Shown: piece by piece, positions 1 to 4,917 of the stretch | How positions within the stretch are numbered: the first letter of the stretch is position 1 | Layout of the letters: every line of letters begins with the position of its first letter | IMG/VR virus record: IMGVR_UViG_2671180814_000001 | DNA from: a virus | Taxonomy: Duplodnaviria > Heunggongvirae > Uroviricota > Caudoviricetes | Length of the DNA stretch: 4,917 nt | Reading direction: 5' to 3' (one strand) | Notes under the pieces: model-generated | Database searches by the model: none | What the model was told of the DNA's origin: nothing | What the model saw: only the letters and a program-made list of their open reading frames with translations | Program-made: the position numbers and the translations under genes

Positions 1-23
1 AAGGAGTGTCCGTTAAACTCAGG

Positions 24-389
24 CTACCTCATTCTGGCGAGTCGTTTTTTGGAGTGTTCGCGGGCTTTTTCCTCCGTCATCTGAATAATCAGCATATCAG
101 CAGGATCGCAAATCACGTTGTAAATCACCCAGCCGTCAATCAGGCCGATAGTCTTGCCGGTTCGTGCCGGGCCAACAAATATCACTGCGTCGTATTCACG
201 CGAGGCCAGGCAGTTCATCGGCTCAATAACATACGGTGCCACCAGCGGATCCCACGGGACTGAGTTCCCTGCCCCCATGGGCACCCGCATATACTGAGCA
301 ACGGCATCAGCAACCCGCATTCGTCTCGGTGCGCGAAGGATATAACCTGAATCGGTTCGTGCTGCCTTTGCGGTTTCCTGATTCAGCAT
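24..389 (-). CDS. Phage terminase large subunit (lambda gpA-like), N-terminal ATPase fragment; 121 aa, far shorter than the ~640 aa family norm, so probably truncated or a pseudogene
   Basis: ORF with ATG at 387-389 and TAG at 24-26. Walker A-like motif FVGPARTGKT, in a context that loosely parallels the lambda gpA N-terminus as recalled. The start overlaps the stop of the upstream Nu1-like gene (TAATG), matching the lambdoid Nu1-A arrangement. Only 23 nt remain to the window edge, so a frameshifted continuation cannot be assessed. Confidence 0.65.
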   Translation of the reverse strand: MLNQETAKAARTDSGYILRAPRRMRVADAVAQYMRVPMGAGNSVPWDPLVAPYVIEPMNCLASREYDAVIFVGPARTGKTIGLIDGWVIYNVICDPADMLIIQMTEEKAREHSKKRLARMR

Positions 390-883
390 TACTCCTCCTG
401 CTGTAATTCCTCCTCATCATCCGCACCTGCTTCAGTCACCCGCAGGGCTATCTGATCGCGCAGATCATCAATAATGGACTGAACACGGCTCACAGCGGCA
501 GGCTGCAGACCGCAGTCACGTTCAAGAATATCCGGTAATGTCTCCAGCACCTGCACGACCGCTTTTGCCCAGATGGCAAACTCCCGTCTGACATCACTGG
601 CCGGAATGAGTTGTGCCGTTTCCTGTTCGAACTTAAGACGCTCACGTTCAGACTGATACCAGGCTTTGCGCTCATGCGCGTCCATTTCGCCTTCTGCAAC
701 CGGCGGTGGTAATGCCAGAAATGCCGACACAATATCAACCACCCGATAAAGCTTGAGGTTGCTTTCATGCCCCCCTGCAACGGGTAGATTTTGCAGCCTT
801 GCCGCAGCAGTCTGGCGATGTACACCTGACAGTGCCGCCAGTTGACTGATATTCAGCGTCAGATTTTTTAACTCTCGATCCAT
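389..883 (-). CDS. Phage terminase small subunit / DNA packaging protein (lambda Nu1 family)
   Basis: 164-aa ORF. The N-terminal segment LNISQLAALSGVHRQTAAARLQNLPVAGG has the same pattern as the lambda Nu1 helix-turn-helix region (KKQLADIFGASIRTIQNWQEQGMPV), and the C-terminus is acidic. GGAG lies 8 nt upstream of the ATG at 881-883. It sits about 180 bp downstream of the cos-like site and directly upstream of the large terminase, with overlapping stop/start. Confidence 0.8.
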   Translation of the reverse strand: MDRELKNLTLNISQLAALSGVHRQTAAARLQNLPVAGGHESNLKLYRVVDIVSAFLALPPPVAEGEMDAHERKAWYQSERERLKFEQETAQLIPASDVRREFAIWAKAVVQVLETLPDILERDCGLQPAAVSRVQSIIDDLRDQIALRVTEAGADDEEELQQEE

Positions 884-1014
884 ACCCGCTCCAGAATGTT
901 TTAAACATGCATCTTGCGAACAACTTTAGGCAAACGGTGTTAGTGATGAACAAAAAACAATCAAAATCGACACCATAAAAATAAAACCACTGTAATATCA
1001 ATCCATTACAGTAG

Positions 1015-1075
1015 TGGTGATGACGAATGAAATTTCAAAAACTAGCCTTTTTCCGCGCCGCTCCCGCCCCGTGGC
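1015..1075 (-). other. Candidate cos site (cosN-like GC-rich core plus adjacent cosB-like sequence) of a lambda-type packaging system
   Basis: Minus-strand sequence CACGGGGCGGGAGCGGCGCGGAAAAAGGCTAGTTTTTGAAATTTCATTCGTCATCACC, compared with lambda cos as recalled from memory: ACGGGGCGGCGACCTCGCGGGTTTTCGCTATTTATGAAAATTTTCC...TTCGTCATAAC. Shared blocks are ACGGGGCGG, CGCGG, GCTA, TGAAA, TTTC and TTCGTCAT. It lies about 180 bp upstream of the Nu1-like start; the lambda spacing is about 190 bp. Confidence 0.55.
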
Positions 1076-1240
1076 AGGCCACCCCACCGGGAGGACCCGT
1101 CAGCCTGACAGCCATGACGAACGTCTGATACAGCGCCCTGCATGAATGACATCGGGATAATCCAGAAAGGAATAGCATCGTACCCACAAGAATCAGTGTA
1201 AGTGTCCTGTTTCTTCCACCCCCGCACAGGACTGGCGAGC

Positions 1241-1417
1241 ATGAGGGACAAACCCGCGAACCATAAACGCGGTAAAAACCCGGTGTGCATCGTTTTTGAT
1301 TATTCCCGCACACTCGCGCAGAAGGAGTTCCCCGTCGGGCTACGGTCATGGTTAATACGGGAATACGGCGACGATACAGCGCATGATGTGTCAGGCTTGA
1401 ATACCTTTATCCTTTAA
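1241..1417 (+). CDS. Hypothetical small protein (58 aa from ATG 1241; the ORF track starts at GTG 1202), opposite orientation to the late genes
   Basis: AGGA at 1228-1231 sits 9 nt before ATG 1241. A hairpin with a T-run on the plus strand follows about 50 nt downstream (1464-1490). The position between Rz and cos, on the opposite strand, is where lambda carries bor, but the protein is not Bor-like and I do not recognise it. Confidence 0.25.
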   Translation: MRDKPANHKRGKNPVCIVFDYSRTLAQKEFPVGLRSWLIREYGDDTAHDVSGLNTFIL

Positions 1418-1463
1418 AAGGGATATCAGTTAAGTTATCCCGTGTAGGGTATAAGCCATTATC

Positions 1464-1490
1464 AAAGCCACTCTGTAGGAAGTGGCTTTT
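1464..1490 (+). terminator. Candidate intrinsic terminator hairpin (stem AGCCACT/AGTGGCT, 8-nt loop, TTTT tail; A-run on the other side, so possibly bidirectional)
   Basis: 7-bp perfect stem at 1466-1472 and 1481-1487, followed by TTTT at 1487-1490. Confidence 0.4.
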
Positions 1491-1501
1491 GTAATGGCAA
1501 T

Positions 1502-1525
1502 AAAAAGCCCCGCGAATGCGAGGCT
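1502..1525 (-). terminator. Rho-independent terminator for the minus-strand (late) transcript
   Basis: Minus-strand RNA AGCCUCGC-AUUC-GCGGGGCU followed by UUUUU: an 8-bp GC-rich stem with one G-U pair. A near-identical element follows the other Rz copy at 3478-3500. Confidence 0.5.
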
Positions 1526-1558
1526 AAATCCTGGTATTTGTAATGACTGGCTCTTATC

Positions 1559-1702
1559 TCAACGCAGCCCCTTACCGCGCGCAAAATGCTCAATATCAAG
1601 CATCAGCAATGAGATGTTTAATCTGGATTCACTCCAGAAGTGAGCACCACCCTGTCTACAGAGCCAGATGTGAAGGATGATGAGTAAAATTATCGCTATC
1701 AT
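1559..1702 (-). CDS. Possible small membrane protein (47 aa, [47 protein letters not shown]), translationally coupled to Rz
   Basis: ATG at 1700-1702 overlaps the Rz stop at 1699-1701 (ATGA). The N-terminal 14 residues are strongly hydrophobic. The ORF ends about 35 nt before the terminator at 1502-1525. It is below the ORF-track length cut-off and was found by manual translation. It is absent from the equivalent position after the second Rz copy. Confidence 0.25.
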
Positions 1703-2166
1703 CGAAGGCATTGCGTCCTGATGTATTCCTGAAGCGTTCTCAGTGCTGTTTGGTCGCGGATAATTCCGTCCCGGATACCGAGAACGTTTCGTCCAGCAAC
1801 TGGAGAGAGTTCGACGGTGGCATCATTGCCCATGCCGGAGGCGCTGGAGGTTTCGGCTGAGGATGGCACAGGGCATTTTCCTTTGACGAGCACCCGACCA
1901 CCATTATCAAGCTTGCGCCGAAGAGCATCATTTTCAGCTTTCGCATCAGCTAACTCCTTCGTGTATTTAGCATCGAGTGCATCAGCATCACGCTGGCGCT
2001 GCTGCATGTCAGTAATGGTTGCGTTCGCCAGCTTCAGTTCTCTTGCGTTTTTGTCGCGCTGCTCTTTGTAGGTAATGGCGTTATCACGGTAATGATTAAC
2101 AGCCCATGACAGGCGGACGATGATGCAGATAACCAGAGCGGAGATAATCGCGGTGACTCTGCTCAT
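1699..2166 (-). CDS. Rz: Rz i-spanin (inner-membrane spanin subunit), lambda type
   Basis: The N-terminus [34 protein letters not shown] (TM helix) followed by a coiled-coil-like region matches lambda/DLP12 Rz as recalled. ATG at 2164-2166 overlaps the upstream endolysin stop (ATGA). A C-terminal Cys is present. Confidence 0.85.
1740..1946 (-). CDS. Rz1: Rz1 o-spanin lipoprotein, embedded in the +1 frame of Rz, lambda type
   Basis: [21 protein letters not shown] has a lipobox (VVGC) and is followed by the proline-rich [16 protein letters not shown]. It resembles lambda Rz1 (MLKLKMML...VVGC...PPPPPAW) and lies entirely inside Rz. Confidence 0.8.
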
Positions 2167-2281
2167 TGCTGCCCCCACAAACAGACTTCACGCTCAATCT
2201 CACGACGGGTCATCAGCCCTTTCCATTGCTTACCGCCAGCATATGTCCAGCGACGTAGCTGGTCACATGCGCCTTTGATAT
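2163..2281 (-). CDS. R: 3' end (last 38 codons) of a second endolysin gene, interrupted upstream by the N gap
   Basis: Translates to [38 protein letters not shown], almost identical to the C-terminus of the complete endolysin at 3987-4484. The reading frame runs directly into the N-run at 2282. Confidence 0.8.
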
Positions 2282-2465
2282 NNNNNNNNNNNNNNNNNNN
2301 NNNNNNNNNNNNNNNNNNNNNNNNNNNNNNNNNNNNNNNNNNNNNNNNNNNNNNNNNNNNNNNNNNNNNNNNNNNNNNNNNNNNNNNNNNNNNNNNNNNN
2401 NNNNNNNNNNNNNNNNNNNNNNNNNNNNNNNNNNNNNNNNNNNNNNNNNNNNNNNNNNNNNNNNN
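2282..2465. other. Assembly/scaffold gap (184 N)
   Basis: Uninterrupted run of N. It begins inside the endolysin reading frame, so real sequence is missing here (at least the 5' part of the endolysin and probably a holin). Confidence 0.95.
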
Positions 2466-2578
2466 GTTATTTCCCCACTTACTGGCTTGGGTTGTTTCGT
2501 GGTACTGCCGTTAACTGGTGGCCCAGAATAAATTCCGGTTTCATTATCAAGCCCACCCGTAAATGGGCTTTGTAATGG

Positions 2579-2836
2579 CTACTTCGCTTTTGCTTCCGCT
2601 CGCTTACGCCGGCGCTCTTCTTTCCTCTCGGCTTTTGCCATGTCCATGAATGCCTGCATGATCGAGTTCCGCATCATGTAGCTAACAAAGTGATGATTGA
2701 CACAGCCGTTGAGGCGCAGCTGCTCGCCAAACTCATCCACCGAGGCCAATGCTTCCATCATGCCCTTCTCGCCTTTCATGAACTCTGAGAAGTCGCGCCC
2801 CGCTCTGGAGGCGCATTCAATAACATGATCACTCAT
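2579..2836 (-). CDS. Hypothetical 85-aa protein with an acidic N-terminal half and a strongly basic/charged C-terminal tail; downstream partner of the KilA-N-like gene
   Basis: ATG at 2834-2836 overlaps the stop of the upstream ORF (ATGA). C-terminal tail AKAERKEERRRKRAEAKAK. A hairpin (AAGCCCA/TGGGCTT, 2549-2570) lies 9 nt past the stop. I do not recognise the family. Confidence 0.5.
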   Translation of the reverse strand: MSDHVIECASRAGRDFSEFMKGEKGMMEALASVDEFGEQLRLNGCVNHHFVSYMMRNSIMQAFMDMAKAERKEERRRKRAEAKAK

Positions 2837-3330
2837 CCCGGAAGCCCGGGGATCGTAATCTGCAGCTGGTTAGCCAGGGAGTTAATCTCAGCGACCAACA
2901 CTGGCTTCGTATAGCGCCATGCTGCCAGCCCTTGTCCGCAGAAGCTCGCCATGTCTTTCTTCTGGTCAAATTCATGACATTTCATGTTGAGCTGCGCACT
3001 TAAGCTGTTGCGATGCTGAAGTTCTCCGGTGAAGTAGTCATCGAGGACTTTATAGGCCGCGTACTTGAACCCGGGGTTTAACCAAGCCGCATAATCGTAA
3101 GCAACAAACTTCCCGCCATATGTTCCACCGTGTACACCGCGCTCAGTAAAAACCACAGATTCGTGGTTTTTCTCCAGCTCGGCTAAGAACTCTTTGGTCT
3201 GCTTGTTTCGCAGGTAGTGGTAAGGCGATTCAGATTCACTTTTACCACTGGCTTTCCACATATCAGTGAGGCAGATCATGCCATCTTCACCGATACGAAT
3301 TGGTTGATTGAAGAGGGTTAATGATTTCAT
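2833..3330 (-). CDS. KilA-N-domain-like protein (165 aa), function unknown
   Basis: The N-terminal ~110 aa fit the KilA-N pattern as I recall it: LFNQPIRIGEDGMICLTDMWKASGK ... EFLAEL ... GGTYGGKFVAYDYAAWLNPGFKYAAYKVL. The C-terminal ~55 aa are unassigned. ATG at 3328-3330; a weak GAG/AGG SD lies upstream. Preceded by the tandem terminators that follow the complete lysis cassette. Confidence 0.6.
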   Translation of the reverse strand: MKSLTLFNQPIRIGEDGMICLTDMWKASGKSESESPYHYLRNKQTKEFLAELEKNHESVVFTERGVHGGTYGGKFVAYDYAAWLNPGFKYAAYKVLDDYFTGELQHRNSLSAQLNMKCHEFDQKKDMASFCGQGLAAWRYTKPVLVAEINSLANQLQITIPGLPG

Positions 3331-3445
3331 AGCGTGTACCTACTCTTTGAAATGAACCTTTGCCGCACAGGAAACCAGCCCACCGAGGCTCGCCAGCACT
3401 AACTGGTATCCTCAAAGGCCCATTCCAAAGGGGCAGGTTCGGTGT

Positions 3446-3470
3446 AAAAAACATGCGTTGCGGTACGCAT
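3446..3470 (-). terminator. Candidate intrinsic terminator (stem ATGCGT/ACGCAT, 6-nt loop, U6 tail on the minus strand)
   Basis: Perfect 6-bp inverted repeat at 3453-3458 and 3465-3470. On the plus strand it is preceded by AAAAAA at 3446-3451, which is the U-run on the minus-strand RNA. Confidence 0.4.
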
Positions 3471-3477
3471 TTATTGC

Positions 3478-3500
3478 AAAAAGCCCCGCATCGCGAGGCT
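3478..3500 (-). terminator. Rho-independent terminator directly downstream of Rz (same module as 1502-1525)
   Basis: Minus-strand RNA AGCCUCGC-GAU-GCGGGGCU followed by UUUUU. It lies about 30 nt after the Rz stop and is near-identical in sequence to the element at 1502-1525. Confidence 0.5.
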
Positions 3501-3531
3501 CATTAAATGGACTTTGTGATTTGCAAAAAAA

Positions 3532-3990
3532 TTATTTCAGGCATTGCGTCCTGATGTATTCCTGCAGGTAGTTAACCTGCGCGGTTATCTTGTCGATTCC
3601 ACTTCGGAGACGGTAATAATTGAGTTCAGCATCTGCTGTAAGTCCTGGGCTTTCTCCATCGCCCATGCCGCTGGCTCCGGTCGTTGACTTTGCACAGGTG
3701 GCGGCGACTTGCAGGCGCTTACGCCCAGCAGAAACATCAGCACGGAGACTTTCGATAGTCGCGTTAGCATCAGCAAGCTCCTTTATGTATCTTGCGTCGA
3801 GTTCTGCTACATCACGTTGACGCTTCCGCATGTCAGCGATGGTGGCGTTCGCCTTCTCCAGTTCACTGGCCTTGTTATCGCGCTGCTCTTTGTAGGCGAT
3901 TGCGTTATCACGGTAATGATTAACAGCCAATGACAGGCAGACGATGATGCAGATAACCAGAGCGGAGATAATCGCGGTTACTCTGCTCAT
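3532..3990 (-). CDS. Rz: Rz i-spanin (second variant; C-terminal half diverged from the copy at 1699-2166)
   Basis: [35 protein letters not shown]-terminal TM helix followed by a charged coiled-coil-like region. GGGGGA SD before ATG 3988-3990. The ATG overlaps the endolysin stop (ATGA). Rz1 is embedded. Confidence 0.85.
3585..3770 (-). CDS. Rz1: Rz1 o-spanin lipoprotein, embedded in the +1 frame of Rz (second variant)
   Basis: From ATG 3768-3770: [20 protein letters not shown] (signal peptide with lipobox Cys) followed by the proline-rich [16 protein letters not shown]. Entirely inside Rz. Confidence 0.75.
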
Positions 3991-4484
3991 TGTTTCCCCC
4001 ACAAACAGACTTCACGCTCAATCTCACGGCGAGTCATCAGTCCTTTCCATTGATTACCGCCAGCGTATGTCCAGCGCCGTAGCTGATCACATGCGCCTTT
4101 AATATCACCCTGGTTTATTTTGCGAAGAAGCGTCGATGTTCTGAAATTGCCAGCGCCCACGTTGTAAACGAACGAGTAAAGAGCGCCGCGCGTTGTTTCC
4201 GGTATATCGACTTTGATGTACGGGTTAATTTGTCTGGCGACAGTGGCAAGGTCTTTATTCAGGAGAGCTTTGCACTCTGCTTCGGTATACGTTTTACCGG
4301 GAATGATGTCTTTTCCTGTATGCCCGTAACATACAGTCCATACACCAACTATGTCTTTGTAAGGATTATGTCTCACACCTTCCAGACCATCGTTACCACC
4401 TGGGCCAGTGATTAACACAGATGCTATAGCAATAGCCCCGCCACCAATAGCAGCAGCAACAGCTTTTCGTAATGATGGAGGCAT
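3987..4484 (-). CDS. R: SAR endolysin (phage-21 R / DLP12 RrrD-type lysozyme with an N-terminal signal-anchor-release domain)
   Basis: 165 aa. [28 protein letters not shown] is a Gly/Ala-rich weakly hydrophobic SAR segment. It is followed by a T4-lysozyme-like catalytic region (LEGV...YKD...VWT). Near-identical to the phage 21 R protein as recalled. The start overlaps the holin stop (TAATG). Confidence 0.9.
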
Positions 4485-4699
4485 TATCCACCTCTCGCAG
4501 CCTTGCGCTTATCTTCTTTAATCTTGAAATAAAGGTTTGTCAGGTACGTCAGCAGGCCAAATACCAGGCTACCCAGCACTCCAATTGCCGCCCACTGTGA
4601 GGGCGTGACTTTATCTAGCAGCTGTAAAAACCAGTACCCGGCACTACCTGCTGAGGTGCCATAGGCGACACCCGTTGTTAACTTATCCATGGATTTCAT
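4484..4699 (-). CDS. S: Pinholin, S21 family (class II holin, 71 aa) with a dual-start motif
   Basis: [71 protein letters not shown]: two TM segments and a charged C-terminus. Met1-Lys-Ser-Met4 is the antiholin/holin dual start. A strong SD (GAGGTGGGG) precedes the ATG. Near-identical to phage 21 S / EssD as recalled. Confidence 0.9.
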
Positions 4700-4811
4700 A
4701 ACCCCACCTCGCAGACAAAGCGGGTGTAAATTGAGGGAATACTACGAAACGTAACAGACTCGGAGTCAGTGAATAACTCAGGTATTGGGTTATCAGCTAA
4801 TATCGAGACTC

Positions 4812-4844
4812 AAAAAATGGAAAAACCCGCTCGACGGCGGGTTT
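4812..4844 (-). terminator. Candidate tR' (terminator of the short late-promoter transcript, the target of Q antitermination)
   Basis: Minus-strand RNA AAACCCGC-CGUCGA-GCGGGUUU followed by UUCCAUUUUUU: a perfect 8-bp stem with a U-rich tail, about 110 nt upstream of the holin start. Confidence 0.55.
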
Positions 4845-4874
4845 AAGCTGTGTGACGAAGTAACCACTCTTAAC

Positions 4875-4903
4875 AGCATAACCAATTTTGGTGATGCTGC
4901 CAA
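4875..4903 (-). promoter_or_regulatory. Candidate sigma70 late promoter (pR'-like)
   Basis: On the minus strand: TTGGCA (-35, 4898-4903), a 17-nt spacer, and TATGCT (-10, 4875-4880). The predicted start is about 55 nt upstream of the terminator T-run. The Q gene would lie beyond the right edge of the window. Confidence 0.35.
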
Positions 4904-4917
4904 CTTACTGATTTAGT

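Follow-up and report, generated by a model that had tools for sequence, protein, structure and literature searches.

We analyzed a 4,917-nucleotide (nt) stretch of viral DNA (the window; Caudoviricetes, IMG/VR record IMGVR_UViG_2671180814_000001) that carries two different pairs of the spanin genes Rz and Rz1, in each of which the smaller gene lies inside the larger one. All coordinates are window positions 1-4917, and all genes of interest are on the minus strand. In the left-hand pair, A, the gene for the predicted inner-membrane spanin subunit Rz-A (1699-2166, starting from an ATG at 2166; 155 amino acids, aa) encloses in its +1 frame the gene for the predicted outer-membrane lipoprotein subunit Rz1-A (1740-1946; 68 aa); in the right-hand pair, B, Rz-B (3532-3990; 152 aa) encloses Rz1-B (3585-3770; 61 aa) in the same way. 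Between the pairs runs a gap of 184 Ns (2282-2465), which alone connects the left half with the right half and on which the first-pass annotation of this DNA was silent. Taking the evidence together, we consider it very likely that these are ordinary lambdoid prophage spanin pairs belonging to two remnants that were probably falsely joined in assembly.

Nested Rz1 genes in both halves

The first-pass annotation reported a complete lipoprotein gene in the +1 frame inside each Rz, and both genes are present where it placed them; the protein strings it quoted (PPAPPAW for the left copy, a signal peptide and core for the right copy) are also correct. The open reading frames (ORFs) are short (61 and 68 codons) and of a kind that most annotation pipelines do not call, so that they could in principle be chance open frames in a GC-balanced gene. 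Their placement is that of a nested outer-membrane spanin gene: known embedded genes of this kind lie wholly within the inner-membrane spanin gene, in another frame, from about 0.4-0.5 to about 0.9-1.0 of its length (PMC6139136), and Rz1-A spans codons 74-143 of the 155 codons of Rz-A (0.48-0.92 of its length) and Rz1-B codons 74-136 of the 152 of Rz-B (0.49-0.89). Each start codon has a Shine-Dalgarno sequence 7 nt upstream, GAAGGAG for Rz1-A and AAGGAG for the ATG of Rz1-B at 3770. The TTG at 3776 proposed by the ORF finder as the start of Rz1-B was rejected as too near this Shine-Dalgarno sequence.

The comparison with spanin families that had been proposed as a check gave matches in both Pfam and PHROGs for all four proteins. 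Rz-A and Rz-B match PF03245 (Phage_lysis; 2.8e-30 and 1.9e-38) over profile positions 1-125 of 126, and both belong to phrog_13 (1.9e-74 and 1e-75). Rz1-A and Rz1-B match the Pfam Rz1 family (PF06085; 3.8e-21 and 2.2e-20) and phrog_3198 (9.3e-29 for Rz1-B). An NCBIfam search returned no match to a spanin model, the single hit being a sub-threshold match of PspB to the Rz-A anchor. The lipobox cysteine, whose absence had been set beforehand as a refuting point, is present in both Rz1 proteins under a PROSITE PS51257-type rule: Rz1-A has IMVVG-Cys19 followed by Ser at +2, and Rz1-B has LGVSA-Cys20 followed by Lys at +2. Neither carries at +2 the Asp that acts as an inner-membrane retention residue, and both have two or three basic residues among their first seven positions. 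Rz1-A and Rz1-B are predicted lipoproteins with a signal peptidase II lipobox, and the mature part of Rz1-A includes eight prolines and a second cysteine at position 27.

Conservation of the nested frame, the other point on which the first-pass reading had been staked, was assessed in 160 related Rz loci from IMG/VR (the 80 closest to A and the 80 closest to B; 88-100% identical, with 134 distinct DNA sequences). An intact lipoprotein ORF is found in 159 of these 160 loci, and the longest open stretch is 65-97 codons in the +1 frame versus 26-41 codons in the +2 frame. Outside the overlap, 44 of 73 variable sites among A-type loci and 38 of 66 among B-type loci fall at the third codon position of Rz (58-60%), and inside the overlap this share drops to 17 of 69 and 13 of 62, respectively (21-25%). 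Within the overlap, the third position of Rz is the second position of Rz1; selection acting on both frames is expected to lower third-position variability in this way. With Pfam Rz1 matches of 4e-21 and 2e-20, a Shine-Dalgarno sequence and lipobox in both copies, a +1 frame that stays open where the +2 frame never exceeds 41 codons, this shift in variability, and the experimentally established need for Rz1 in lambda lysis (PMC5295617, PMC6139136), an origin of both ORFs as chance frames is exceedingly improbable.

Both pairs also occupy the position expected of spanins in a lysis cassette. Pair B is directly downstream of the holin gene S (4484-4699; phage-21-type, 71 aa; PF04971, 2e-35) and the endolysin gene R (3987-4484; lysozyme family, 165 aa; PF00959, 8.3e-48; annotated rrrD or lysozyme R in relatives), with Rz-B starting at 3990. 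Upstream of Rz-A, the 3'-terminal 119 nt of an R21-type endolysin gene (2163-2281; 87% identical to window 3987-4105) are visible before the sequence runs into the Ns; in closed genomes a complete S and R precede Rz-A, and this left-hand R is a complete 165-aa lysozyme gene in Shigella sonnei 53G and Escherichia coli TF5.

Both Rz proteins are predicted to have the N-terminal anchor and periplasmic coiled coil (PF03245) of an inner-membrane spanin, and periplasmic cysteines are predicted in both pairs. In Rz-A these are Cys98 and Cys153, kept in 80 of 80 homologues, and Rz-B has two equivalent cysteines. Function in lambda requires an intermolecular homotypic disulfide at either Rz C152 or Rz1 C29 (PMC5295617, PMC6139136). 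The lipidated Cys20 is the sole cysteine in the mature part of Rz1-B, unlike Rz1-A, with its additional Cys27, and lambda Rz1, with Cys29. Since lambda needs one or the other disulfide and Rz1-B lacks a second cysteine, pair B would, by analogy, depend on the disulfide of the C-terminal Rz cysteine alone. On these sequence features, which include all those that define the class, both pairs are classed as lambda-type embedded two-component spanins.

Their lytic mechanism can be proposed from that of lambda (PMC5295617, PMC6139136). Rz would be held in the inner membrane by its N-terminal anchor and extend a coiled-coil domain into the periplasm, and Rz1, a short proline-rich lipoprotein made from the +1 frame within Rz, would be targeted to the outer membrane. 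The two would bind through their C-terminal regions and so bridge the periplasm, and after the holin and endolysin have acted the spanins would destroy the outer membrane, probably by fusion of the inner and outer membranes.

An exchangeable block bounded by the Rz1 gene

The two pairs are different alleles, as had been claimed from the sequence: identity between Rz1-A and Rz1-B is 27%. The overall identity of Rz-A and Rz-B, 58%, is unevenly spread, with 57 of 73 residues identical in positions 1-73 (78%), 21 of 71 in positions 74-143 (30%), and 10 of the last 12 (83%). Self-comparison of the DNA gave 87% identity between 1937-2281 and 3761-4105 and 96.6% between 1706-1734 and 3539-3567, and detected no similarity between the intervening stretches, 1735-1936 and 3568-3760. 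To within a few bases, these dissimilar stretches coincide with the Rz1 genes. The nested Rz1 gene and the Rz segment encoded on the same nucleotides form one exchangeable block, of which pairs A and B carry different alleles and whose borders coincide with the Rz1 gene, while the Rz anchor, first coiled coil and extreme C-terminus are conserved.

The first-pass annotation read the corresponding differences in Rz as a sign of co-evolving cognate pairs. This argument is circular: the same bases encode the Rz segment and Rz1, so a corresponding difference in Rz is unavoidable and provides no independent evidence, and Rz differences across the block cannot be read as co-evolution. The related claim that the part of Rz contacting Rz1 differs between the pairs does not fit the region implicated in lambda, where residues 143-151 of Rz have been linked to Rz1 binding and E150 is required for co-purification (PMC5295617); this C-terminal stretch is nearly identical in A and B. 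Given this near identity, pairing may or may not be allele-specific. Exchange of the block by mosaic recombination, the third element of that reading, is borne out by phage HK620, which carries an A-type block where the right-hand cassette of the window has a B-type block. Mosaic sharing of spanins among phages, the embedded architecture and the role of the disulfides have been described already (PMC6139136, PMC5295617).

Linkage of the two cassettes across the 184-N gap

The presence of both pairs in a single element, which the first-pass reading took for granted, is doubtful. The pairs are connected only by the 184 Ns, and closed S. sonnei genomes have them at separate loci. Window 1-2281 aligns to S. 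sonnei 53G (HE616528.1) at about 1,940,843-1,943,123 with 99.96% identity (one mismatch), and window 2466-4917 aligns to the same chromosome at about 2,661,375-2,663,826 with 99.84% identity (four mismatches). The two loci have the same orientation and are about 718 kb apart in 53G and about 710 kb apart in CP032523.1. Likewise, closed S. sonnei chromosomes encode proteins identical to Rz-A and to the 85-aa product of the right half of the window, at different places. The cryptic prophage remnants of 53G share with the window the terminase gene truncated by an insertion sequence (IS) and the flanking IS1, and differ from it in that complete S and R genes are present at both loci, where the window joins the two through Ns. 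A single cassette with two spanin pairs would be continuous, and the window is not. These comparisons make it most probable that the pairs come from separate lysis cassettes.

The ends of the window suggest how the halves could have come together. Homology to IS-free E. coli prophages extends only from base 32 to base 4889, and the remaining bases are IS ends. At the left, bases 1-31 are the outer end of an IS3-family element; bases 1-31/32 recur with 100% identity at other IS borders (7039-7008 of locus L014 and 3148-3178 of locus L023), and beyond this end S. sonnei 53G continues into HTH_Tnp_1 and rve genes (locus L015, 6200-7356). At the right, bases 4890-4917 are the outer end of IS1, beyond which S. 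sonnei continues into InsA/InsB (locus L008, 1195-1892). Since both ends are IS ends, the 4,917-base window looks like an entire short-read scaffold bounded by IS repeats, from S. sonnei or a near-identical strain.

The sequence around the gap points to two sets of repeats. In 53G, the left-hand R continues past base 2281 for 2 nt and then for 167 nt that are identical, 167 of 167, to window 4108-4274, so the left contig stops 2 nt short of this R repeat. The right half of the window differs from closed S. sonnei genomes at only four positions (4155, 4167, 4187 and 4266), all within 4108-4274, where the two loci of 53G differ at just these positions, and at each of them the window has the left-locus allele. 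What the left contig lacks at its end is thus present as a patch inside R of the right contig, which implies either collapse of the R paralogues or a gene-conversion tract that created an exact 167-nt repeat. A second repeat, X (1204-1499), is non-coding and is found on the downstream side of either kind of lysis cassette. In every reference, the end of the right contig is followed by 183 nt and then by a copy of X, and the left contig carries X in matching orientation; the 184 Ns of the gap are nearly equal to the 183 nt between the right contig end and this copy (X'). A scaffolder following the X repeat would put the left contig at its present place. If the 183 nt next to the right contig in relatives were left over from an R gene, the double arrangement would be ancestral, but they have no similarity to R and this origin was rejected. 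We propose that two separate prophage remnants were tied across the 184 Ns, probably through the shared repeats formed by the paralogous R genes and X.

The patch at 4108-4274 may have arisen by collapse or may be a real gene-conversion tract between the paralogous endolysin genes of the source strain. For conversion, the four clustered substitutions all match the paralogue, and only this segment is converted, the rest of S and R being of the right-locus type. The patch nevertheless falls precisely at the break of the left contig, at the start of the Ns, as collapse of a repeat in short-read assembly would give, and we regard conversion as a possible but rather unlikely origin.

A more far-reaching alternative is that the cassettes are truly adjacent in the source genome. 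A prophage remnant would then carry two intact, mutually different spanin pairs one behind the other, in the gene order S-R-RzB/Rz1B-KilA-N-85aa, truncated R (roughly the 3'-terminal 300 nt), RzA/Rz1A, cos and terminase, with the Ns hiding only a 167-nt R repeat that short reads could not resolve; the arrangement could represent, for example, a preserved intermediate of module insertion. The gap of 184 nt is about the length expected of a hidden R repeat (2 + 167 + 15 nt) and so also fits a real junction behind that repeat, an assembly path through left contig, repeat, right contig, repeat and remainder would give exactly the present layout, and both halves have the same orientation. Moreover, no known repeat border accounts for the end of the right contig at 2466: no mosaic or repeat border was found at this point in 51 viral contigs, where the 34-mer to its left always continues into window sequence. 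Against adjacency, two closed S. sonnei chromosomes carry the same sequences (at least 99.8% identical) in direct orientation with about 0.71-0.72 Mb between them; given this spacing, adjacency requires a deletion-type junction that removed about 0.7 Mb, through illegitimate recombination ending exactly at a repeat border.

Nor did searches of genome, viral and metagenome collections reveal such a junction. No single place in the 5,426 complete E. coli genomes or 50,697 phage records covers more than 81% of window 1400-4917, while each half of the window alone is common in E. coli genomes and phage records. Two Rz copies in one locus occur in 0 of the 160 related viral loci and, as a double arrangement, in no complete E. 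coli genome or phage record searched. Pattern scans for the gap-flanking anchors 165-195 nt apart gave 0 matches in genome and viral contigs, and scans for the end of the R repeat followed by 5-35 nt and the start of the right contig gave 0 matches in viral, metagenome and genome contigs; these junction scans required exact matches, which a junction with a one-base difference could escape, and the annotated collections were without Shigella chromosomes. On balance, true adjacency appears improbable.

The reach of these scans, the fit of the gap to a hidden R repeat and the lack of a border at 2466 all weigh against our reading of two ordinary but probably falsely joined spanin pairs, as does an unusual residue in the left-hand copy. 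Rz-A has an arginine at position 18 (codon at 2113-2115), in the middle of the membrane anchor (IIVRLSWAV), where it may affect lytic function. Among the 80 A-type homologues this arginine is shared only with the S. sonnei copy, most having cysteine there, and it may reflect decay in a cryptic prophage. We continue to favor two ordinary spanin pairs from separate remnants, with an artefactual join as the probable source of their proximity.

On this reading of a probable false join, the window carries little biological weight. Both spanin pairs are already known, ordinary lysis genes; embedded Rz/Rz1 is a textbook architecture, each of the two alleles is common in prophages of E. coli and Shigella, and scaffolding is the most likely source of the one striking feature, the proximity of two different pairs. 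Gene duplications that straddle Ns in short IS-bounded scaffolds should be treated as assembly joins until proven otherwise. If the join were real, the locus would be an intermediate showing insertion of an Rz1-centred block or a KilA-N module into lysis cassettes, and a natural setting with matched and mismatched Rz/Rz1 subunits in one cell.

Neighboring genes and related systems

At the left of the window, a large terminase gene (24-389; PF05876 GpA_ATPase, 4.5e-22) is truncated by the IS to 121 codons; the same 121-aa product is encoded in S. sonnei 53G (locus L015, 5778-6143), and the left-hand prophage is a small defective remnant. To the right of this terminase gene lies a DUF1441 gene in the position of a small terminase gene (389-883; PF07278, 2.7e-41), annotated as terminase small subunit in phage vB_EcoS-569R4. 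Repeat X is 88% identical to a stretch of E. coli OkiPb01701 (locus L002, 2317-2600), and its part at 1371-1499 is 97.7% identical to the X' copy of the S. sonnei right-hand locus (locus L008, 4555-4683), where X is interrupted by IS2. A hairpin at about 1466-1491 terminates X. Near-identical GC-rich hairpins followed by T-runs (AGCCTCGC....GCGGGGCTTTTT, minus strand) are located at 1506-1525 and 3479-3501, one downstream of each spanin pair, and the left one scored as terminator-like in a scan. A 50-aa ORF that overlaps the end of Rz-A (1559-1711; phrog_11822, 1.8e-36) is called as a gene in closed genomes. To the right of the gap, and separated from it by a 113-nt spacer, is the 85-aa ORF, which is hkbL-like (2579-2836; phrog_875, 1.3e-53), occurs as an exact protein in many Shigella and E. 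coli genomes, and overlaps the end of an hkbK-like KilA-N/ORF11CD3 gene (2833-3330; PF04383, 1.3e-15; PF10549, 2.4e-13).

Lambda Rz/Rz1 has the same gene-in-gene organization in the +1 frame and likewise starts immediately behind the endolysin gene, which it overlaps by ATGA. The lambda Rz anchor differs from those of the window at a single residue each (18 of Rz-A, 21 of Rz-B), and lambda shares with both pairs the two periplasmic cysteines of Rz and, in Rz1, the lipobox, proline-rich core and P-x-AW-x-M motif. Identity to lambda Rz is 67% for Rz-A and 59% for Rz-B, and identity to lambda Rz1 is 46% over the whole alignment for Rz1-A and 45% over a 40-residue local match for Rz1-B. The differences are that each pair of the window has another allele of the central block (Rz codons ~74-143, equal to Rz1), that Rz1-B has no counterpart of lambda Rz1 Cys29, and that the partners in the window are a phage-21-type holin and a lysozyme-family endolysin instead of lambda S and R.

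HK620 Rz (NP_112070) and its nested Rz1 correspond to the A-type pair, with 97.3% DNA identity to window 1500-2166 (HK620 locus L235, 2037-2704), and are followed by KilA-N (hkbK) and hkbL genes with 94.3% identity to window 2529-3403 (L235, 1093-1965). In HK620 the KilA-N module thus stands behind an A pair, whereas in the window it stands behind the B pair, and lambda-type S and R precede the HK620 spanins where the window has phage-21-type genes. Because HK620 combines the A block with the KilA-N/hkbL module and with lambda-type S and R, sequence comparison indicates that the spanin block, the KilA-N module and the type of holin and endolysin reassort independently.

The right half also has counterparts in Stx-converting and other lambdoid phages (such as Stx2a_F349 and PhiR49_1), which have the same order, S-R-Rz/Rz1-KilA-N-85aa, as window 2466-4700. 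DNA identity to these phages is 92.7-96.4%, with Rz1 annotated as nested in Rz, and in Stx2a_F349 itself the two genes are annotated 'Rz lysis protein' and 'Rz1 protein'. There is no substantial difference from these phages, some of which have a 145-aa variant of Rz instead of the 152-aa form. It is normal for a genome to have several lambdoid prophages with spanins of their own; the E. coli genomes contain a median of two matching places and a maximum of 11.

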